Origin: a virus
DNA length: 64,000 bases
Reading direction: 5' to 3' (one strand)
Virus record (IMG/VR): IMGVR_UViG_3300027792_000010
Numbering within the stretch: the first letter of the stretch is position 1; each line of letters starts with the position of its first letter. Below, in pieces: positions 10,974 through 63,297 of this stretch. The notes under the pieces were generated by a model. That model was not told where the DNA came from. It was given only the letters and a program-made list of their open reading frames with translations, and made no database searches. Made by a program: the position numbers and the translations under genes.

Positions 10974-11010
10974 ACAAAAAACCCCGCTTCAGTTTCCTGG
11001 GCGGGGTTTC
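10974..11010 (-). terminator. attenuator 1 intrinsic terminator
   Basis: AAACCCCGC...GCGGGGTTT hairpin followed by TTTTTGTTTT. Confidence 0.9.
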
Positions 11011-11037
11011 GTATTTTTTCTGGTTTACCAGTTTACG

Positions 11038-11151
11038 TCAAGTTTTCCCACCCACCACTATATTATTACAGAGTAAATATGACAATAACCATGCGGCTGC
11101 TGTATGCAGCTTGGTCATTGTCGAACATAGTGTAGAATGGACTTTTTTCAT
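11038..11151 (-). CDS. attenuator leader peptide 1 (37 aa) MKKVHSTLCSTMTKLHTAAAWLLSYLLCNNIVVGGKT
   Basis: Lies between promoter 11180-11208 and terminator; contains antiterminator TGGGTGGG (11047-11054). Confidence 0.85.
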   Translation of the reverse strand: MKKVHSTLCSTMTKLHTAAAWLLSYLLCNNIVVGGKT

Positions 11152-11179
11152 TTTAAATACCTATTACCTTTCAATTTAT

Positions 11180-11208
11180 AATATACCATTTTGTAGAACC
11201 AAGATCAA
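11180..11208 (-). promoter_or_regulatory. sigma70 promoter of attenuator 1 (TTGATC-N17-TATATT, TGG before -10)
   Basis: Same architecture as the other three attenuator promoters. Confidence 0.85.
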
Positions 11209-23621: not shown

Positions 23622-23657
23622 AAAAAAGCCCCCGAACTTCTCAGTCCGGGGGCTTTT
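23622..23657 (-). terminator. attenuator 2 intrinsic terminator
   Basis: AAAAGCCCCCGGAC...GTTCGGGGGCTTTTTT. Confidence 0.92.
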
Positions 23658-23680
23658 ATAAGCTACTTGTTTACCCGGAC

Positions 23681-23758
23681 CTATACAATACTATCAAACA
23701 TACTATCAAAACTGATAGTATCGCTGTTGATGATAATGCTGAAAGTAGAGGTACACAT
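23681..23758 (-). CDS. attenuator leader peptide 2 (25 aa) MCTSTFSIIINSDTISFDSMFDSIV
   Basis: AAGGA RBS; antiterminator GTCCGGG (23674-23680) directly after the TAG. Confidence 0.88.
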   Translation of the reverse strand: MCTSTFSIIINSDTISFDSMFDSIV

Positions 23759-23798
23759 TGAAAATAGTTTTCCTTGAAAAAGTTTTTGTTCTGTCTTT

Positions 23799-23827
23799 AA
23801 TATACCACTTTGTAATACAAAGATCAA
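23799..23827 (-). promoter_or_regulatory. sigma70 promoter of attenuator 2
   Basis: TTGATC-N17-TATATT with AAGTGG before -10. Confidence 0.85.
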
Positions 23828-31930: not shown

Positions 31931-33292
31931 CCGTTCTGAAAAACTTATAAAATCTTTGCAAGACTCATGTTTTCTTCCTGCTTCATAGAAACAGCTTCTT
32001 GACCTATACAAGCATCTTGAAGTCTTATACTTTCTCCACAGGCTTTAATTCCCGACGAACTATCGGTATTTTTAAGTTTAATTAATACATACTTTTCAAG
32101 ATTAATAGATGCATTTAAGTCTCTATCTATGACATTTCCACAATCACATATATAAATCCTATCTTCTAAAGTAAGGTCTTCTTTCAAACAACCACAAACA
32201 GAACACGTCTTACTTGAAGGAAAGAACCTATCTACTTTAATTATGGAACCTCCATACCAAGAGGTCTTATAGGTTAGTTGCCTTTTAATTTCATTAAAAG
32301 AAGCATCTCCTATAGCACCTGCAAGTTTATGATTTTTCATCATACCAGAGACGTTTAAATCTTCTAAAACGATGTATCTTGGTTTGGTTTTCGCCAAAAT
32401 ACTTGTCATCTTATGAAGAGTATCTTTTCTTTGACTACTAATTCTTTTATATATCTTTTGTACTTTTAATTTACTCTTTAATCTATTATTACTTGATCTT
32501 TTAGTTTCTTTATCAAACTTTTTACGAGCTAAATCCTTTTGAGCATGAGCTAACTTTTTCTTTGATTTTTTAAGATACTTAGGATTTTCAAATATTTGAC
32601 AATTAGAACATGTAGCTAATGTTTTAATGCCTACATCAACACCTAAAACAGATTCTATTTGGTTTACTGGTTCTGGTATATCTTGTTCTACTTGAACAGA
32701 TATATACCATCTATCAGCTTCTTTGGAGACTGTCATAGAGTTTATTTTAACATCTTTAGTTGTTATATAACCTTTTTCTTTAAGTTTTACATAACCGACT
32801 TTAGGAATATTGATTGTTGAATTAGTTATATAGAACCCAAAGGAAATCCTAAAAGAATCTTTGTCTTTATGTTTTGACTTGAACTTAGGGAAACCTACTT
32901 TTTTACCTTGTTTCAAACCTCTAAAAAAGTTTTTGAAAGCTGTATCTAAATCCCTTAATGCTTCTTGAGGAGCCATTTTGGATATATCATACATCCAATG
33001 ATAATCAGTTTTCTTCTTACTACATAAAATTTTATGTTGATCTATAGCAGTTAAGGTTTTCTTTTCTGACTTATAAAGTTCTATACGTTCATTTAATCCC
33101 CAATTATAAGCAAAACGAGCACATCCAACACTCTTTTCTAAAAGAGTACGTTGTTTATTATTAGGATTAAGTTCTACTTTATATGCTCTATTTATCTTCA
33201 TTTTCTTTATTCTTCTTAGTCATATGACTTCTTCTACCATAAATTTTAGCTGAATAACAAGACATAATAGTTAAGATATCTGTTAGATTCCC
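31931..33292 (-). mobile_element. IS607-family element carrying only tnpB (no tnpA)
   Basis: Left end GGGAATCTAACAG, right end TAAGTTTTTCAGAACGG, GG at both junctions. Confidence 0.75.
31945..33201 (-). CDS. tnpB: RNA-guided endonuclease TnpB
   Basis: RAYKVELNP HTH; RuvC D (GVDVG), E (VLEDL), D (DRDLNA) intact; zinc finger CSVC...CDC. Confidence 0.95.
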   Translation of the reverse strand: MKINRAYKVELNPNNKQRTLLEKSVGCARFAYNWGLNERIELYKSEKKTLTAIDQHKILCSKKKTDYHWMYDISKMAPQEALRDLDTAFKNFFRGLKQGKKVGFPKFKSKHKDKDSFRISFGFYITNSTINIPKVGYVKLKEKGYITTKDVKINSMTVSKEADRWYISVQVEQDIPEPVNQIESVLGVDVGIKTLATCSNCQIFENPKYLKKSKKKLAHAQKDLARKKFDKETKRSSNNRLKSKLKVQKIYKRISSQRKDTLHKMTSILAKTKPRYIVLEDLNVSGMMKNHKLAGAIGDASFNEIKRQLTYKTSWYGGSIIKVDRFFPSSKTCSVCGCLKEDLTLEDRIYICDCGNVIDRDLNASINLEKYVLIKLKNTDSSSGIKACGESIRLQDACIGQEAVSMKQEENMSLAKIL

Positions 33293-34452: not shown

Positions 34453-34537
34453 CTATATGTCTGTTTATTACTCTTAGCTAATCCTTAAAACTATATAATA
34501 ATAAACTTCTTATTGAGAGTTCTATATTAATAAGTTA

Positions 34538-34608
34538 TGCCCCTAATTGGTCTCGAACCAATGACTCCTGTTTTAGAGACAGTTGTTTTACCACTAAACT
34601 ATAAGGGC
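34538..34608 (-). tRNA. amber-suppressor tRNA (anticodon CUA)
   Basis: GCCCTTA/TAGGGGC acceptor, A73, arm (A)CTGT-CTCTAAA-ACAG(G). Confidence 0.85.
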
Positions 34609-34614
34609 ACATAA

Positions 34615-36651: not shown

Positions 36652-37638
36652 TTATAAGTTATTATCCAAATAGCTCATCCAAAATATTCTAGCTTTATTG
36701 GATATAAACGATCCCATCTTTTTAGGATCTATACCATTTTTAATAATGGTATCCTGTTCTTCCTTCATTACATCACTATATACCCACCTTATGTATTCTC
36801 CGGTGGTAGATTTATCCAGAGGATTCCCAAGTTCTTTCATTTTGTCGATGCCTTGCTGCATCCTATTTTCAGTTACAGCATATTCAACAAACTCTTTTAC
36901 ATTTTCTACCTCTTCGGTGTCGATAGAGGCAAGTTTCTTAACTTTACTATTCTGATGCTTCTCACCTTTCACCTTAAAGATATATCTTTTGGTATCATCT
37001 ATATATTCCCAAACTATTCCTTCCCCCAAACCACCTATCCCAAAGTATTTACCCACAGGGCATTCTTCTTCTACTTTTATAGTAAGCTCTACTAGTTTAT
37101 TCTGAGCTATTTCTGGCTTATTGAAGTCTATATCCAGTTCATAGTTCTCAAACTGAAGAATATTGAATATCTTTTTATCCTCATTCTTAAGATGCTTGAA
37201 TTGCTCTATAGGCTTATAGACATCATCTATTCTAATTGCAAAAATTACCCACATGACAGGTAGTTTACTTATAGCTACACATTTTTGTATGCCAGAACCA
37301 CACCACTCTCCATAGATAGCACAACTGTCATTAAATTCTATACCTTCAAAAATCTTGTCTATGTCTCTATTCGTCATGGTAAGCATAAAACGGTAATTAT
37401 CAGATTCTATGCTCAACAACCTATCTTTACTTTGATATTCATAATGTCCATCTTTATATTTAACAATGGCTGAGTTTGTGCCGTGAAGTTTTATGGTCCC
37501 ACGGAACTTTAGAATAGGATAATCAGTCTCATGCCTATAGACAGGAGCACCTGTTTTATCCTCACCTTTATAATCATGGTGAGATTTAACTGCTCTGATA
37601 ACTTCTCTGAATTGTCCTATATCGGTAAATTTTTTCAT
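36652..37638 (-). CDS. ATP-dependent RNA ligase (Rnl2-like)
   Basis: TIKLHGTN (motif I), YGEW, GEGIVW, FKVKGEKH. Confidence 0.85.
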   Translation of the reverse strand: MKKFTDIGQFREVIRAVKSHHDYKGEDKTGAPVYRHETDYPILKFRGTIKLHGTNSAIVKYKDGHYEYQSKDRLLSIESDNYRFMLTMTNRDIDKIFEGIEFNDSCAIYGEWCGSGIQKCVAISKLPVMWVIFAIRIDDVYKPIEQFKHLKNEDKKIFNILQFENYELDIDFNKPEIAQNKLVELTIKVEEECPVGKYFGIGGLGEGIVWEYIDDTKRYIFKVKGEKHQNSKVKKLASIDTEEVENVKEFVEYAVTENRMQQGIDKMKELGNPLDKSTTGEYIRWVYSDVMKEEQDTIIKNGIDPKKMGSFISNKARIFWMSYLDNNL

Positions 37639-38430: not shown

Positions 38431-38475
38431 AAAAAAGCCTCAGCGATCCTTGGTTCGGTTCGCTGAGGCTCTTTT
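38431..38475 (-). terminator. attenuator 3 intrinsic terminator
   Basis: AGAGCCTCAGCGA...TCGCTGAGGCTTTTTT. Confidence 0.92.
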
Positions 38476-38494
38476 CAGAGATTTTGGCTGTTAC

Positions 38495-38581
38495 CTAATG
38501 CAAAACAACCACCTTCAGCGAAACCTTATTAGGTTGCTGTGGATTAGGGTTCGGGTTATTTTGATTAGTAACAATAAACAT
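38495..38581 (-). CDS. attenuator leader peptide 3 (28 aa) MFIVTNQNNPNPNPQQPNKVSLKVVVLH
   Basis: AAGGA RBS; antiterminator TTCGCTGAAGG (38512-38522). Confidence 0.88.
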   Translation of the reverse strand: MFIVTNQNNPNPNPQQPNKVSLKVVVLH

Positions 38582-38610
38582 AATTTTTAATCCTTTTAAT
38601 GCTTAACTTT

Positions 38611-38639
38611 AATATACCACTTTGGTATAAGAAGATCAA
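38611..38639 (-). promoter_or_regulatory. sigma70 promoter of attenuator 3
   Basis: TTGATC-N17-TATATT with AAGTGG before -10. Confidence 0.85.
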
Positions 38640-54823: not shown

Positions 54824-55438
54824 TTATAATAGTTTCTGATAAAGAACTTCATTATCTTTACAATAATTTTTTAGTTTATCTAACCATGCCTGAGTTTTGC
54901 ATTTAAACATTCTCGGCATCTCAAACTTCTTTTCTTTCTTTATTTTACATACCAACCCTTCAAAGGTGATCCCAGGCAACTCACTCTTACGGACCTGCTG
55001 CTCTATCTCACGATTAAAGTTACCCCGGAATAGCAGCTTAGCTATATCCAAATGCCCGAACAGCCTAAGGAAATCATCAGGGCCTAGTATCCCTTGTTTA
55101 TAGGGGCTTACATCTATTAAATTCATTATGTGGGGCTCGTTAACATGCTGACCTGCAAAAGAGTTCGGTCCCCAAAATTCAAAGAAAGCCACAGCACTTT
55201 CATATCTCTGCTTAGTGAAGATATCGCTGAGATCTTTTTCCCAGTTACCTTTTATCAAAGGTATAGCTTCGCCCAGATGAGGATGATCCTCACCGAGGAG
55301 TTGGTGACGAGTCCCGAACTTGTAGAATGCTTTTTTCTTGGACCACTCTACACGGATATTGGACCCATCCAACTTATCAAAACCATAAACCAAGGTACCG
55401 TGCTGTTGGTCACGACTTAGCGATGGATATTCCTTCAT
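54824..55438 (-). CDS. RNA ligase-like nucleotidyltransferase
   Basis: FDKLDGSNIR (KxDG), FFEF, FEGLV, FKCK. Confidence 0.72.
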   Translation of the reverse strand: MKEYPSLSRDQQHGTLVYGFDKLDGSNIRVEWSKKKAFYKFGTRHQLLGEDHPHLGEAIPLIKGNWEKDLSDIFTKQRYESAVAFFEFWGPNSFAGQHVNEPHIMNLIDVSPYKQGILGPDDFLRLFGHLDIAKLLFRGNFNREIEQQVRKSELPGITFEGLVCKIKKEKKFEMPRMFKCKTQAWLDKLKNYCKDNEVLYQKLL

Positions 55439-57267: not shown

Positions 57268-58608
57268 TCAGTTGATACTGTAGTTTGCCCTAATATACAA
57301 CAATGCTTGTTCTTTTGTTGTAACAGTACCTTCCAATTGTTCAGTGTCTACTGCTTCAAGAATCTCTTTGAATTTAGGTCCGGGTTTGAAACCCATAGCA
57401 ATAAGGTCATTACCATCTACCAATCTATCTGGAAGGATGACCTTACCTCCTGGTTCCTCTGCAAAAGAATCCATAGCTTCTTTAACAAACTGCAAATTAT
57501 CTAATCCTCCATGAGAAGACAAACAATCAGCCTTGTGAAGTTGCAAGTGCTCTTCAAATCTATCCATAGCTATAAATCTCTTAAGCGTGGACTTCCTCAT
57601 GTCCCGTATTACACAGAACTTCATATGGTTCTCAATTAGGGAACAAACCCTATCTATAAAATAATTTGAAAACTTCAACCTGGTTAATAGCTCTCTGGCT
57701 ATATGAGAGCCTTTAATATCATGTCCATTGAACACTAACCGACCTTTCCTATCATCCCAAGCTTTAGTAGTGGGCTTTCCCACATCATGCAACAAAGTAG
57801 CCCACAAAAGCTCTGGGGAGGCTTCTTTTGGGAGGTAATTCAAGGTGAGACAGGTGTGTTTACCGACGCACCCTTCTGGATGAAAGTCCACAGGCTGCTC
57901 ACACCCAAACATATCTTGAATTTCTGGCAGGATATGCTTTAGTATACCAAAATGTTCCAAATCCTTAAGAGCTTCTCCTCTGACTTTACTTTGTTCCAAT
58001 ATTTTTGTCAACTCATCTGCTATTCTCTCTACAGATATTTTCTTGATAAGGATACTATTATCCATTATAGCTTTCTCTGTATCGGAGTCCATAGAGAACC
58101 CCAAACGGTGTTTGAACCTTATGGCCCTCATTAATCTTAAGTGGTCTTCCAATATTCTCTCTTCAGGATCACCTATGAACCTAATTAATTTATCTTCTAT
58201 ATCTTTTCTACCGCCTACGTAATCATAGTACTCCTCAAGGGTAGGGTCATAAAAGATACCATTGATAGTGAGGTCTCTCCTGTTAGCATCCTCTTCCATA
58301 GTAGAAAACTCAACACTTGAAGGATGTCTACCATCCAAGTAAATACCTGCGTCTCTTCTAAAAGTAGCGACCTCAAATTGAATCCCATCAAGTATAACAA
58401 TTATTACGCCAAAAGCTTTCCCTACTTCTATATTATTAGGGAACAGTTCCTGAACTTGGTGAGGAAAAGCAGAGGTAGCTATATCATAATCATGCGGCAT
58501 AACACCCATAATTTGGTCACGATTGCAACCGCCAGCAAATACCGCTTGATATCCTGCGCTCTGTAGAATTTTAATAATACCTACAGCAAGTTCTTTTTGC
58601 TTATCCAT
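57268..58608 (-). CDS. cca: CCA tRNA nucleotidyltransferase with HD domain
   Basis: AGGCNRD, HDYDIAT, RRDLTING, DHLRLMRAIRF, LLHDVGK. Confidence 0.93.
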   Translation of the reverse strand: MDKQKELAVGIIKILQSAGYQAVFAGGCNRDQIMGVMPHDYDIATSAFPHQVQELFPNNIEVGKAFGVIIVILDGIQFEVATFRRDAGIYLDGRHPSSVEFSTMEEDANRRDLTINGIFYDPTLEEYYDYVGGRKDIEDKLIRFIGDPEERILEDHLRLMRAIRFKHRLGFSMDSDTEKAIMDNSILIKKISVERIADELTKILEQSKVRGEALKDLEHFGILKHILPEIQDMFGCEQPVDFHPEGCVGKHTCLTLNYLPKEASPELLWATLLHDVGKPTTKAWDDRKGRLVFNGHDIKGSHIARELLTRLKFSNYFIDRVCSLIENHMKFCVIRDMRKSTLKRFIAMDRFEEHLQLHKADCLSSHGGLDNLQFVKEAMDSFAEEPGGKVILPDRLVDGNDLIAMGFKPGPKFKEILEAVDTEQLEGTVTTKEQALLYIRANYSIN

Positions 58609-59165
58609 TAGTTAAGTCCTATTGTACTTTTCAAATATTGTTTAGAGGGTATCCACTCTTTAATATCCATAGAGAATACCTCATCTACATTCCGTATGAT
58701 CTGATATGAATGCGTCGTTAATACTATCTGACAGTTTCGCTCTATAACCTCCTCAAATATTTTAAGCACTTTGACCTGATTAGTCAAAGACAACCCAGCT
58801 TCCGGTTCATCTATAATAAGAATAAGGTCTTTAAACTCTATTGCGGCCTTTAATAATGGCAATATAGCTTCACCATGAGACATAAAATGAGAAGTCACGG
58901 TAAAACGTGCGTTTTTAGAGGACGCCACACTCTGAAACCGAGGATTCATTTTCTCGGTATCCAGGAATCTGGTTTGGACTTTATCTGCCTCTATTCTCTT
59001 TAGCTTCTTATCTGGTTCAGAATTCAACAAGTGTAAAAGGGATGATTTACCTGAGCCATTCTCTCCTACAATTACATTCATCCCAGGATGGAATTTTACC
59101 TCGAATGGAGAAATACCCCGGTAAGGAACCTCTAGGGTAAATGACTTTAAAAAATGGGCGTACAT
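58608..59165 (-). CDS. ABC/AAA-type ATPase (cytoplasmic, single domain)
   Basis: GENGSGKS, MSHGE, IDEPE, TTHS. Confidence 0.85.
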   Translation of the reverse strand: MYAHFLKSFTLEVPYRGISPFEVKFHPGMNVIVGENGSGKSSLLHLLNSEPDKKLKRIEADKVQTRFLDTEKMNPRFQSVASSKNARFTVTSHFMSHGEAILPLLKAAIEFKDLILIIDEPEAGLSLTNQVKVLKIFEEVIERNCQIVLTTHSYQIIRNVDEVFSMDIKEWIPSKQYLKSTIGLN

Positions 59166-59306
59166 AAAAAATCCTCCCTTATTAGGAAGTAATATACTAT
59201 TTGGGAATTAAAATTGAAAGTAGGATAAAGATACAGGTCTCTGTAGTTTATATAATCTGCTATGTTTGCTGCAGCTCCGCCTACATAAAGGTATTACAGA
59301 AATAAA

Positions 59307-59380
59307 TACGCTAGGCAAGATTCGAACTTGCGTTGTAGCTTTCGTAGAGCTATGCCTTTAATCCAATAGGCTACTAGCGC
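59307..59380 (-). tRNA. tRNA-Arg(ACG)
   Basis: Loop CTACGAA. Confidence 0.92.
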
Positions 59381-59386
59381 ATATTT

Positions 59387-59875
59387 TCAATACCCTAATA
59401 ATAGTAAAGCTTTATCTATGTCTAAATCAGAAAGCCCTATTAAGCTATCTGTTAGTACTAAATGATCTTTTAAATCTCCCAAATCATGATCCTCATCATC
59501 TATTATTATGTACTTACCCTTAAACTTGTTAGACCTTAACCAACTTTTTATTTCATCACTTCTATTATGGCTTATACGATTAGTATTTTTTAGTCTTACA
59601 CCGCAAGGGATCATTCCTATTATTTTATCTATGGGTACTGTTATAGCATCTACTGCAAAAGGATTGACACCATGTATAGCTCCATTTATCCTAAATATAT
59701 CTTTTAGCTTTTCCAATCCTGTTACATCTGACATCCAGCTACTTGTTATTACTAAGTTAGCATCTGTTATATCAATAAGTCTATTTAGTCTTTTTATAGT
59801 ATCTAAATCAAAATATAAATAGTCAGTATTTGCGGTACACAGCACCCCATCAATGTCTAAAAAGATAATATTCAT
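59387..59875 (-). CDS. HAD-family phosphatase (RNA-repair 'Swiss army knife' type)
   Basis: IFLDIDGVL, VITSSW, IIIDDE; start moved off tRNA-Val. Confidence 0.85.
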   Translation of the reverse strand: MNIIFLDIDGVLCTANTDYLYFDLDTIKRLNRLIDITDANLVITSSWMSDVTGLEKLKDIFRINGAIHGVNPFAVDAITVPIDKIIGMIPCGVRLKNTNRISHNRSDEIKSWLRSNKFKGKYIIIDDEDHDLGDLKDHLVLTDSLIGLSDLDIDKALLLLGY

Positions 59876-59895
59876 GTTATCACTTTCTATTTTAA

Positions 59896-59968
59896 TAGGC
59901 TTATTCGGATTCGAACTGAAGACCTCCTGCACGTCGAGCAGGCGCTCTTCCAATTGAGCTATAAGCCC
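59896..59968 (-). tRNA. tRNA-Val(GAC)
   Basis: Loop TCGACGT; one T-stem mismatch. Confidence 0.88.
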
Positions 59969-60244
59969 AACTAATCTATTTTTTCATGTCTAGATTGTTT
60001 TACTATTTTATAATGACTCCTCGAAGGGTCATAGCTACTTCTAGCCTCTCCGGGCTTACCGACCTCAGCAGCGTAAGACCGTTCAAGTCTATCATACCCA
60101 CGTTTAACAATCTCATCAATTTTCTGGCTACTCATAAATACCTCTACTAAGATTAAAGGTTACTGTTTACTCTTCATATTGTCCTATAAGGTCTTTTGGA
60201 AGGTTTAGTTATCTATAACATCAAAATTCAGTATACTTAAAGAA

Positions 60245-60820
60245 CTAAAGCCCACTATTATTACCCCATAAATAATAACTAAGCATATCGGCGCTATTTA
60301 AAATAACAGATAGTGTAGTCATACTAGTACCTTTGCTATACACTGAGGATAAATCAAAACTATACCCTCCATGATGGTGATCTATAGCCTCAATATGTTT
60401 ATCTGTAAGCTGTATCCCATTCCTAAAGCACTCTGCTACTGCCTTACTATTCTCCGCGTAGGGAGGAATATCTTTTCTATACTCGAATAGTTGATTACTC
60501 TTAGGCTCTTTAAGAAGTTCGTATCGCCATAGTTTATCCAGGTCATGCACAAAGGACACTAAAACTACATCGTCTATGTTAAAATCCTTTATTTCTTCAT
60601 AAGAGGAAGCTGTCTTGTATAAAGAGATGCCTAATTCCATTACTTGTGCTGTATGGTCACCCCACCCAGCTCTCCACCAGTGGTGATACTTTCTGGCTGA
60701 AGGATAGAAATCTATCTTATCCTTCAGGGTATAGTACGCACCTATCAAACTATCAAGGAGCGTACTACTCGTAATGTTATCTTCAAAGATCTTAGGTATG
60801 TCTGTTCCGCGTGGAATCAT
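60245..60820 (-). CDS. HD-domain phosphohydrolase
   Basis: HT...FVHDLDK...HHGG...AD. Confidence 0.82.
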   Translation of the reverse strand: MIPRGTDIPKIFEDNITSSTLLDSLIGAYYTLKDKIDFYPSARKYHHWWRAGWGDHTAQVMELGISLYKTASSYEEIKDFNIDDVVLVSFVHDLDKLWRYELLKEPKSNQLFEYRKDIPPYAENSKAVAECFRNGIQLTDKHIEAIDHHHGGYSFDLSSVYSKGTSMTTLSVILNSADMLSYYLWGNNSGL

Positions 60821-60847
60821 TGTTATCCCTACCTTTCAAAAATGTAA

Positions 60848-60920
60848 TAGACGTTGAGGGATTCGAACCCCCGACATCCGCGATGTAAACACGGCACTCT
60901 ACCAACTGAGTTAAACGTCC
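60848..60920 (-). tRNA. tRNA-Val(UAC)
   Basis: Loop TTTACAT. Confidence 0.93.
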
Positions 60921-61120
60921 ATCAGTTTCTTATTTATTTCTGCGATTTCTTCCTCTTTTTTTCTTTTCTCCCTAACACACTCTCTTCTGGTATGAGTAAG
61001 CCATTCCGGGGCATCTGTAAAAGAATCATCCCAGGTATACCCCTCAATAGAATGATTCAGACTTAGTATTTCATCATATAGCTCACTCTTACGCTCTAAT
61101 AGCTGCTTTCTTTTTTTCAT
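60911..61120 (-). CDS. hypothetical coiled-coil protein
   Basis: AAGGA RBS; 3' end overlaps the tRNA-Val 5' end by 10 nt. Confidence 0.55.
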   Translation of the reverse strand: MKKRKQLLERKSELYDEILSLNHSIEGYTWDDSFTDAPEWLTHTRRECVREKRKKEEEIAEINKKLMDV

Positions 61121-61144
61121 TACAATTTTTCCTTAATTATATTG

Positions 61145-61216
61145 TGGGACCGGAGAGATTCGAACTCTCGGTACCCGTATTAAAAGTACGGGGCCTTACC
61201 ACTTGGCTACGATCCC
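61145..61216 (-). tRNA. tRNA-Lys(UUU)
   Basis: Loop CTTTTAA. Confidence 0.95.
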
Positions 61217-61331: not shown

Positions 61332-61404
61332 TACCCCTGGAAGGACTCGAACCTTCAACTCCTTGCTTAAGAGGCAAGTACTCTAACCATTGAGTTACAG
61401 AGGC
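61332..61404 (-). tRNA. tRNA-Lys(CUU)
   Basis: Loop CTCTTAA. Confidence 0.93.
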
Positions 61405-61455
61405 GATTTTAGACGTTTCTTATTTTTACTACTTTTCCACACGACCCCATAAAAC

Positions 61456-61490
61456 AAAAAAGCCCCAGAGAAAAATCTCCTGGGGCCTTT
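61456..61490 (-). terminator. attenuator 4 intrinsic terminator
   Basis: GGCCCCAGGAGA...TCTCTGGGGCTTTTTTG. Confidence 0.92.
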
Positions 61491-61514
61491 ATCTAAAGCT
61501 ATTTAGCTTCATGT

Positions 61515-61595
61515 TCAGATAAAAGAACCCCAGGGGCTACCTTTATGGCGCTTTGCTACGACTTTTACCTTTACCACAAACAAACTCATAAACAT
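61515..61595 (-). CDS. attenuator leader peptide 4 (26 aa) MFMSLFVVKVKVVAKRHKGSPWGSFI
   Basis: AAGGAG RBS; antiterminator CCTGGGGT (61527-61534). Confidence 0.9.
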   Translation of the reverse strand: MFMSLFVVKVKVVAKRHKGSPWGSFI

Positions 61596-61614
61596 AATAT
61601 ACTCCTTGTATCAT

Positions 61615-61643
61615 AATATACCACTTTGCCGGGTAAAGATCAA
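61615..61643 (-). promoter_or_regulatory. sigma70 promoter of attenuator 4
   Basis: TTGATC-N17-TATATT with AAGTGG before -10. Confidence 0.85.
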
Positions 61644-61652
61644 AATATTTTT

Positions 61653-62126
61653 TCACTTTTTATATCGCTCAGGTATATTCAAACTTTTAGTACTCTTGGT
61701 AAGCTTTACTTTTGCATCATCATAAGCACGAGCGGCATCGATCTCATCAGGAAATACTCCCAATTCATAATTTTTACCTTTGAAGTGTAAACGGGCTCTC
61801 CACTTAGTCCCATCCTGTTTGGTGACACCACGAAATTTAGATACTGAGGATGTGTGCTTTTTATGGCCTATACCCTGTTTTTTAAGGATAGGTTGTTTTG
61901 TTACAAGATTAAAAGGTTGGGGAGTATCCCCGCTGACGCTATTTAGTATTCCATCAGGAACTACCTCTTCTTTTATATCTGTTTCTAAAGCGTTTCTTAC
62001 TATACAGTCCCCATCATACCCCAACCCATCCAGATAGTCCTGTATACTTTTAATCTCAGTCACACATGCAACTAATCTGCTTTCCAAGGCCGTTTTTACT
62101 ACATCTTTCACGTTTTGCGGTATCAT
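61653..62126 (-). CDS. AP2 DNA-binding domain protein
   Basis: SKFRGV...KWRARL...LGVFPDEIDAARAYD. Confidence 0.85.
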   Translation of the reverse strand: MIPQNVKDVVKTALESRLVACVTEIKSIQDYLDGLGYDGDCIVRNALETDIKEEVVPDGILNSVSGDTPQPFNLVTKQPILKKQGIGHKKHTSSVSKFRGVTKQDGTKWRARLHFKGKNYELGVFPDEIDAARAYDDAKVKLTKSTKSLNIPERYKK

Positions 62127-62763: not shown

Positions 62764-63297
62764 TTACTCCTTGTTATAAAATTTTTCCCATAGTTCTTTT
62801 ATGGCTATGATATGTAGACTTATAGCTTGAGGGGTCATACCTAACGCCTCTGCTATCTCTACACCACTCATACCTTTTGCCGTAAGATCTAATATCTTCT
62901 TTCTTTTACCTGAGACACCACCTGACCTTTGAATTTTATTATAAAAGACTTTCCAATCTATCTCTATATCGGATAGCTCAGAGATAAGATCTTCCTCCCC
63001 GTGAAGAATTTCATCATACTCTATTTTAGTTATGTTATAACCACTCTTATCGCTAGTTTCTCTCTTATGCTCATTCTGCATGAATCTAAACATACAAGTA
63101 GATATGTAGGTTTTAAAGGTTCCCTGTTTCTTGTCAAACCTCGTAAGGACATCATTCTCCAGCATATGAATAATAAGTTTACTAATAAAGTCTTCAATGA
63201 AATCTTGGTTTTTGATGCCAGTCTTCCATATTAACATCTTTCTAAGATCGCCTACGTTCTCTCGGAAGAAAATTTCGTAGTTAGTTGTTTCTTTCAT
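62764..63297 (-). CDS. sigma70-family (ECF-like) sigma factor
   Basis: Region-2-like FDKKQGTFKTYI; C-terminal HTH GMSGVEIAEALGMTPQAI. Confidence 0.7.
   Translation of the reverse strand: MKETTNYEIFFRENVGDLRKMLIWKTGIKNQDFIEDFISKLIIHMLENDVLTRFDKKQGTFKTYISTCMFRFMQNEHKRETSDKSGYNITKIEYDEILHGEEDLISELSDIEIDWKVFYNKIQRSGGVSGKRKKILDLTAKGMSGVEIAEALGMTPQAISLHIIAIKELWEKFYNKE

Follow-up and report, generated by a model that had tools for sequence, protein, structure and literature searches.

In enterobacteria, multivalent attenuators let one leader peptide sense several amino acids: the ilvGMEDA leader senses Leu, Val, and Ile, and the thr leader senses Thr and Ile. The chromosomal pheST leader attenuator of E. 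coli senses a single amino acid and has a synthetase, phenylalanyl-tRNA synthetase, as its target. The T-box riboswitch binds uncharged tRNA directly and requires no open reading frame (ORF). The general mechanism of leader-peptide attenuation has been described (PMC1183508), as has the pheL leader (PMC3082878). Why phages carry tRNA genes is debated; they have been proposed to serve codon compensation, to replace host tRNAs that have been degraded, or to evade tRNA-cleaving defenses (PMC10264068, PMC11464382). Our literature search found no description of how phage tRNA genes are regulated, and a full-text search, with most subscription journals outside it, found no report of tRNA genes under attenuator control, either in phages or in bacteria.

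Here we analyzed a 64,000-nucleotide stretch of DNA (the window) from an uncultured element of roughly 200 kb (190 to 202 kb), whose contig comes from a JGI metagenome. The element is probably a phage, as judged from its size, its tRNA genes (at least 36, of which 29 are in the window and seven more lie upstream on contig L033), its PHROG matches, and its single coding strand; no capsid, terminase, or other hallmark structural gene was found within the window. Searches of a phage collection with the 59- to 64-kb region (Megablast) and with a 682-amino-acid (aa) ORF (tblastn) gave no match. We propose that a cassette ahead of five of the tRNA genes is, with good probability, a transcription attenuator of the ribosome-mediated (leader-peptide) type, controlling a tRNA operon. 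Such a cassette would probably make its tRNAs only when ribosomes decode Lys, Val, and Arg codons slowly.

Layout and codon content of the Lys/Val/Arg cassette

A sequence-only reading had placed an attenuator at positions 61456 to 61643, and its coordinates, codon string, and list of downstream tRNAs were all correct (Table 1). Every part of the cassette is on the minus strand, as is nearly every long ORF in the window, and an AP2/HNH-like gene upstream of it ends at 61653. In a promoter scan of the 58.5- to 64-kb region, the cassette promoter was the sole TG-extended match, and no promoter-like site was found between the terminator and Val-UAC. At the level of sequence, a short ORF preceded by a ribosome-binding site comes after the promoter, and an intrinsic terminator stands between this leader and the tRNA genes, its U-run ending 46 nucleotides (nt) before the start of tRNA-Lys(CUU). 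All parts of an attenuator are present, with the order and spacing expected, and the leader is predicted to be translated. Between the five tRNA genes lie small ORFs and the genes of an HD-type and a HAD_SAK_2 protein.

Table 1. Positions of the cassette, its downstream genes, the sister cassettes, and the insert-bearing tRNAs (window positions unless another contig is named)
Feature	Position	Strand	Remarks
Promoter TTGATC-N17-TATATT	61615-61643	-	TTGATC 61643-61638, TATATT 61620-61615; spacer ends TGG (extended -10)
Shine-Dalgarno AAGGAG	61602-61607	-	6 nt 5′ of leader ATG
Leader ORF MFMSLFVVKVKVVAKRHKGSPWGSFI	61515-61595	-	26 codons plus TGA stop (61517-61515)
Control-codon run GTG GTA AAG GTA AAA GTC GTA GCA AAG CGC CAT AAA	61542-61577	-	
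Antiterminator 5′ strand CCUGGGGUUCUUUUAUCUGA	61515-61534	-	contains leader stop UGA (61517-61515)
Antiterminator 3′ strand UUAGAUAAAGGCCCCAGG	61479-61496	-	last 9 nt are the terminator 5′ arm
Intrinsic terminator hairpin GGCCCCAGGAGAUUUUUCUCUGGGGCU	61461-61487	-	GC-rich, -17.8 kcal/mol
U-run TTTTTTGTTTT	61451-61461	-	directly after terminator hairpin
tRNA-Lys(CUU)	61332-61404	-	ARAGORN
tRNA-Lys(UUU)	61144-61216	-	ARAGORN
69-aa ORF, no assigned function	60911-61120	-	conserved in relative L031
tRNA-Val(UAC)	60847-60921	-	ARAGORN
HD-type protein, 191 aa	60245-60820	-	PF01966 in two homologues
tRNA-Val(GAC)	59895-59969	-	ARAGORN
HAD_SAK_2 protein ("Swiss Army Knife" RNA repair HAD domain)	59387-59875	-	
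tRNA-Arg(ACG)	59306-59381	-	ARAGORN
AAA_15/AAA_21-type ABC ATPase	58608-59165	-	185 aa, very short; directly upstream of CCA-adding enzyme
CCA-adding tRNA nucleotidyltransferase	57268-58608	-	
RNA-ligase-like gene	54824-55438	-	phrog_548, E 2.5e-12
Sister cassette, leader MFIVTNQNNPNPNPQQPNKVSLKVVVLH	38431-38639	-	precedes Asn, Pro, Gln, Pro, tRNA(CUA), Gln
RNA-ligase-type gene	36652-37638	-	phrog_548, E 4e-55
Sister cassette, leader MCTSTFSIIINSDTISFDSMFDSIV	23622-23827	-	precedes Phe, Asp, Met, Met, Ile, Ser(GCU)
Sister cassette, 37-aa leader	10974-11208	-	precedes Cys, Leu x4, Tyr, Trp, His, Ser(UGA), Thr, Ala x2
Insert-bearing tRNAs, window	9755-9647, 3040-2932	-	
Insert-bearing tRNAs, other contigs	L033 3099-3203; L025 4283-4392; L031 2417-2520; L009 5337-5442		

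Two genes upstream of the cassette lies a gene for a 177-aa sigma-factor region-4/LuxR-type HTH protein (62764 to 63297, minus strand), which matches phrog_1740 (RNA polymerase sigma factor) at 4e-7 and is syntenic in relatives. The TTGATC/TATATT promoter class could be read by host sigma-70 or by the phrog_1740-type protein.

To compare the leader with chance, cognate codons were scored by standard wobble rules against the codon usage of the window, taken from 39 of its long ORFs (11,776 codons). The five downstream tRNAs decode 10 of the 12 codons of the core run (5 Val, 4 Lys [2 AAG and 2 AAA], and 1 Arg). At least 10 matches in a 12-codon run have a P value of ~5e-6 in a random 25-codon ORF with the element's own codon usage. 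Over the whole ORF, the 25 sense codons that follow the ATG include 10 cognate ones, compared with 16.3% in the window ORFs (binomial P value of 0.0039), and among 110 short ATG ORFs on the same strand the leader alone reached this match fraction. The leader thus carries the control-codon run, cognate to the products of its operon, that is a feature of attenuators. The claim that its codons cover every downstream isoacceptor also held, in that all five tRNAs are represented (P value of 0.036 for a random 25-codon ORF), though the run has two non-cognate codons, GCA (Ala) and CAT (His).

Ribosome position and the predicted antiterminator/terminator switch

The antiterminator is predicted to form by pairing of UCUUUUAUCUGA with UUAGAUAAAGG, a helix of -26.7 kcal/mol that includes the stop codon and is the minimum-energy fold of the transcript lacking the terminator 3′ arm. 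A pairing of CCUGGGG (61534 to 61528) with CCCCAGG of the terminator had been proposed from the sequence. It does form, within this longer helix, but its outer CCU:AGG pairs are specific to the window; only the GGGG:CCCC core and an inner helix are conserved in relatives.

To model translation, a ribosome footprint reaching from -15 to +12 of the A site was masked at each codon in turn. With the A site on any codon up to CAU, the terminator 5′ arm was sequestered with a probability of 0.7 to 0.87, which fell to 0.5 at the last AAA and to 0.24 to 0.37 from there to the stop; in this model, the last Lys codon is too near the antiterminator to act. Equilibrium folding with the full terminator raised the probability of the terminator from 0.3 to 0.9 across the same ribosome transition. 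The masked-folding switch recurred in all five homologues and in three sister cassettes of the same genome, and in eight cassettes the switch point fell where the codon run ends. In the sister cassettes, full-terminator equilibrium folding always favored the terminator (probability of 0.96 to 0.97, n = 3), and their transcripts were therefore folded after cutting before the terminator 3′ arm. In silico, then, the cassette has an antiterminator that is exclusive with the terminator and dependent on ribosome position.

Folding revealed no stable 1:2 protector hairpin and no stable upstream partner for the antiterminator 5′ strand, and without a ribosome the antiterminator formed with a probability of 0.75. 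Because no protector hairpin is present, an untranslated leader would read through (ON by default), unlike the leaders of trp-type attenuators.

In the mechanism that we propose, host RNA polymerase would initiate at the extended -10 promoter and a ribosome would load on the 26-codon leader. When Lys, Val, and Arg codons are decoded fast, the ribosome would reach the UGA; since this codon lies within the antiterminator 5′ strand, a ribosome there would hold the strand single-stranded, the terminator would fold, and transcription would end at the U-run, 46 nt before tRNA-Lys(CUU). Scarce or uncharged tRNA for AAG, AAA, GUA/GUG, GUC, or CGC would instead stall the ribosome within 61577 to 61545, leaving the antiterminator to take the terminator 5′ arm. 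Read-through into the two Lys, two Val, and Arg tRNA genes would follow and would probably extend into the HD, HAD, CCA-adding, and ligase-like genes. The loop would be self-limiting, since it yields the very tRNAs that it senses, and would supply decoding capacity on demand. We infer both termination and read-through, as well as a natural cause of tRNA shortage. A device of this kind senses the total charged pool (host plus phage) and is blind to whether tRNA loss, starvation, or a codon-usage mismatch lies behind slow decoding.

A terminator/antiterminator pair ahead of translation-apparatus genes also resembles T-box logic. The cassette could accordingly be a direct, T-box-like RNA sensor of tRNA or a protein-dependent antiterminator, with the ORF incidental, but we regard this as exceedingly improbable. 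No T-box match to Rfam was found at the gathering threshold in the window or at E values up to 1 in the leader, and the Stem I/specifier architecture is absent. The Shine-Dalgarno sequence and ATG of the leader are, in contrast, conserved, and the position of the switch point at the end of the codon run speaks for a read-out by translation. None of the Rfam leader families (His_leader, Thr_leader, Leu_leader, Trp_leader, and others) matched at the gathering score either: the window matches were to tRNA only, and the best leader-type match of the cassette was His_leader, at 20 bits versus a gathering score of 49.

Relatives, sister cassettes, and other lineages

Relatives of the cassette were found by a metagenome scan with the promoter motif and by look-ups of homologues of the HD protein; the promoter pattern had no match in IMG/VR. 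The Lys/Val/Arg leader is kept, with differing peptide sequences, in four diverged relatives. In the close relatives (L001/L009/L011/L025 and L031/L032), the leader ML MNL(V/F)VVKVKVVVKRRK... stands ahead of blocks of Lys(CUU), Lys(UUU), an insert-bearing Val(UAC), and Arg(ACG). The positions of the window's GCA and CAT are GTG and CGT in these close relatives, and L025 and L031 have an uninterrupted 13-codon Val/Lys/Arg run (VVVKVKVVVKRRK). In the distant relatives L023 and L024, whose HD proteins are 45 to 46% identical to that of the window, the leader peptides are unrelated in sequence but have the same composition and again stand ahead of Lys/Val/Arg tRNAs. The L023 leader (MMLCIPMKRRVVVSVKRRKTGY, run KRRVVVSVKRRK) precedes Lys(UUU), Val(UAC), Lys(CUU), Arg(CCG), Arg(ACG), Val(GAC), and Lys(UUU); it contains a CGG codon and its block contains tRNA-Arg(CCG), and the window has neither. 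The L024 leader is MYTLTKRMVVVSVKRRFSGY, with the run KRMVVVSVKRR.

The structural elements are shared as well. In five homologues, the conserved inner helix is flanked by pairing between the C-run of the terminator 5′ arm and a G-run at or beside the stop codon, and the antiterminator overlaps the stop codon in all homologues. The terminated and antiterminated full-length states are 0 to 3 kcal/mol apart in all five. Over these homologues, 82% of cells were paired for the antiterminator and 87% for the terminator, compared with 24 to 66% for slid controls; shuffle controls for the percentage paired gave 21/500 and 19/500. With five sequences and few compensatory changes, this covariation is supportive rather than decisive.

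The same cassette design precedes all four tRNA blocks of the window and a fifth block (Glu/Ile2/Gly/Arg) just past the window end on the same contig (L033). A search for the promoter class TTGATC-N13-GTGGTATATT gave 6 matches versus 1.06 expected. Within the window, the class is confined to tRNA-block cassettes, with exact copies at 61643, 38639, and 23827 and a copy with one mismatch at 11208, and every copy directly precedes a tRNA block, with a short ORF and a strong terminator between. Across both strands of the 64 kb, no hairpin-plus-U-run terminator is stronger than the four of the cassettes. A promoter firing straight into the strongest terminators of the region is sensible only if termination is conditional.

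The leaders match their own blocks. In a 5 x 5 table of leaders versus blocks, cognate codons were enriched on the diagonal only (20/36, 17/24, 11/27, 10/25, and 11/21; Fisher combined P value of 6e-16), all off-diagonal cells being nonsignificant, and the true pairing was the best of 120 permutations (69 versus 55). The leader at 10974 to 11208, for example, is rich in His, Ser, Thr, Leu, Cys, Ala, Trp, and Tyr codons. The matching extends to synonymous codons: Ser is encoded by TCN in leader 1 (block with Ser-UGA) and by AGY in leader 2 (Ser-GCU), and Arg is encoded by CGC in the Lys/Val/Arg leader (Arg-ACG) and by AGA/AGG in leader 5, whose block has an insert-bearing tRNA-Arg(UCU).

The possibility that the terminators are the ends of upstream operons was ruled out, as each has its own promoter 150 to 200 nt upstream. 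The leader is also the only gene between each promoter and terminator.

A promoter and terminator of this kind would yield a discrete short transcript, and the cassette might be an unregulated small peptide gene whose ~150-nt transcript or 26-aa peptide acts in trans, the tRNAs being expressed otherwise and the codon match reflecting only a basic/hydrophobic peptide. Terminated leader RNAs can act in trans elsewhere, as described for rnTrpL (PMC6614838), and sRNA-like Rfam matches of the cassette were weak, sub-threshold, and terminator driven. We nevertheless consider such a gene very unlikely. L023 and L024 retain the codon composition and the structure but not the peptide sequence, and five dissimilar leaders match their blocks down to synonymous codons. 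The overlap of antiterminator and stop codon in all homologues and the lack of a promoter-like site from the terminator to the tRNAs in the scanned region likewise argue against it and are in keeping with attenuation.

Several further observations concern these blocks. The fifth cassette (L009 4135 to 4260; L033 1962 to 2047) has an unusually long 5′ leader (~85 to 95 nt) with its own hairpin between promoter and leader ORF, which the other four cassettes lack. The Asn/Pro/Gln leader ends in TAG (38497 to 38495), as it does in relative L005, and in-frame decoding past this codon would bring the ribosome into the terminator. A tRNA with the anticodon CUA (amber suppressor; "Pyl" in ARAGORN) lies at 34537 to 34609 (minus strand) beside tRNA-Gln(CUG) in the same block. 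The leader stop and this tRNA may together form a sensor of suppressor supply or may point to recoding of TAG in other parts of the genome. In att2, the leader stop is TAG here (23683 to 23681) and TGA in L018. An ORF resembling, by eye, ribosomal protein bS21 (~1470 to 1260, minus strand) lies among the block 1 tRNA genes, and TnpB/IS605 OrfB-type genes (Cas12f1-like TNB domain) lie within or between tRNA blocks (31945 to 33201, minus strand; L033 4238 to 5353).

Cassettes were also sought beyond this lineage. IMG/VR was searched with a conserved piece of tRNA-Lys(CUU), which gave 34 viral contigs, and cassettes were located on these by a simple terminator, leader, and tRNA finder. One unrelated group has a D/K/R/G/H-rich leader (MTKFVVDTHDCKTRRDGRGFGKHDKDRHKHRVI), 20 of whose 32 codons are cognate to its block of Asp x2, Arg(ACG), Lys(CUU) x2, Gly x3, and His. 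All five Lys codons of this leader are AAG, and the block lists no Lys(UUU). Lys is here grouped with Asp, Arg, Gly, and His and the leader is altered to suit, indicating that leader composition tracks the tRNAs of the block. The same lineage has an Ala/Glu/Phe leader ahead of Ala/Glu/Phe tRNAs and a Leu/Ser/Trp/Cys leader ahead of Trp/Leu/Cys/Ser tRNAs. In several other IMG/VR phages whose tRNA-Lys genes are similar (e.g., L039, L054, and L063), the simple leader finder located nothing convincing, so the design is common but not universal. Taken together, anatomy, codon statistics, the four sister cassettes, the relatives, and the folding with ribosome position back the original attenuator reading.

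Downstream genes, causes of slow decoding, and known systems

No strong terminator was found on the minus strand after the cassette before ~50914, and from this absence only we deduce a transcription unit reaching that far. The ATPase and CCA-adding genes are thus probably in the same unit as the cassette. AAA_15/AAA_21 is the class of the sensor ATPases of OLD and PARIS-type defense systems; the ATPase at 58608 to 59165 has no nuclease partner here. Both RNA-ligase-type genes lie inside or downstream of tRNA blocks and, together with the HD, HAD_SAK_2, and CCA-adding genes (57268 to 60820), have the makeup of an RNA end-healing/sealing kit placed among the tRNAs.

In several tRNA genes the anticodon loop is interrupted, at the anticodon or immediately 3′ of it, by a hairpin insert of 27 to 30 nt. 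The genes concerned are Tyr(GUA), Ser(UGA), and Arg(UCU) in this genome and Val(UAC) in relatives; the Val(UAC) gene of the window has none. The Tyr and Val inserts have TAAGTTCA...ACTTAG in common, and ARAGORN mislabels the insert-bearing tRNAs (as Asn, Asp, Leu, and Thr). The nearest published remark concerns "enigmatic introns" in the tRNAs of Lak megaphages (PMC6784885). The inserts are far too short to self-splice. Because they would need cutting and re-joining, the repair-type genes have an alternative rationale: the role of the HD, HAD_SAK_2, CCA-adding, and RNA-ligase-like genes may be to process the insert-bearing tRNAs and not to mend nuclease damage.

The unit had also been called a natural sensor of anticodon-nuclease attack of the PrrC type. 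On that account, the same hardware would have been selected chiefly as an alarm for tRNA-Lys cleavage by PrrC or PARIS-type nucleases: cleavage would stall ribosomes at AAA/AAG, and read-through would yield replacement tRNAs and RNA-repair enzymes. As the sequence-only reading had stated, tRNA-Lys(UUU) is the PrrC target (PMC10264068), and the PARIS nuclease AriB cleaves host tRNA-Lys, a tRNA-Lys variant of phage T5 providing rescue (PMC11464382). The probable transcription unit, with its first strong terminator not before ~50914, includes the HD, HAD_SAK_2, CCA-adding, and RNA-ligase-like (phrog_548, 2.5e-12) genes. However, the leader gives Lys no priority, its Val codons outnumber those for Lys (5 Val, 4 Lys, and 1 Arg), and the close relatives add Val and Arg. 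The device is of the same kind on all five blocks, including Phe/Asp/Ile/Ser and Asn/Pro/Gln; the repair-type genes may process insert-bearing tRNAs instead; and the anticodon loop of tRNA-Lys(UUU) is the ordinary CUUUUAA, with no visible escape change. We therefore found no specific support for a PrrC sensor, and an alarm function as the chief reason for selection seems quite unlikely.

It is simpler to read the device as a general gauge of decoding speed, since all five blocks, which cover most amino acids, share it. Nuclease attack is plausibly one cause of the slow decoding that this gauge would sense. It is a related, unlikely proposal that the Lys/Val/Arg cassette triggers a damage-response regulon, in which tRNA-Lys cleavage by PrrC or AriB would co-induce the tRNAs and the end-healing/sealing kit. 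If this were true, host defense would be sensed via the translation speed of a 26-codon test gene.

An attenuator on each tRNA block implies that decoding speed is gauged codon set by codon set, and transcription by the element would then be confined to whichever tRNA sets are limiting. Reporter fusions responsive to the depletion of specific tRNAs make the function of viral tRNAs testable. Such cassettes would widen classical attenuation from amino-acid supply to tRNA supply and would be compact natural sensors of the availability of individual isoacceptors.

As judged from its sequence and modeled folding, the cassette appears to be a known attenuation mechanism in a new setting, having the defining features of attenuators except the protector hairpin. 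Like the T-box, it would make a tRNA-status-dependent terminator/antiterminator decision before translation-related genes; unlike the T-box, it would be read out by the translating ribosome, and it has no T-box motif or Rfam match. With the multivalent amino-acid-operon attenuators it shares a promoter, a short ORF whose control codons stand for several amino acids, an exclusive antiterminator and terminator, and, as predicted here, translation of the ORF and a read-out by ribosome position. It differs from them in gating tRNA genes rather than biosynthetic enzymes, in control codons that match the downstream isoacceptors codon by codon, in lacking a 1:2 protector hairpin and thus being ON without translation, and in its place on a phage-like element, with one copy per tRNA block and no Rfam family. 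Like pheST, it would subject a component of the translation apparatus to leader-peptide attenuation in response to the supply of charged tRNA; unlike pheST, its products are the tRNAs themselves, which would close a direct feedback loop.
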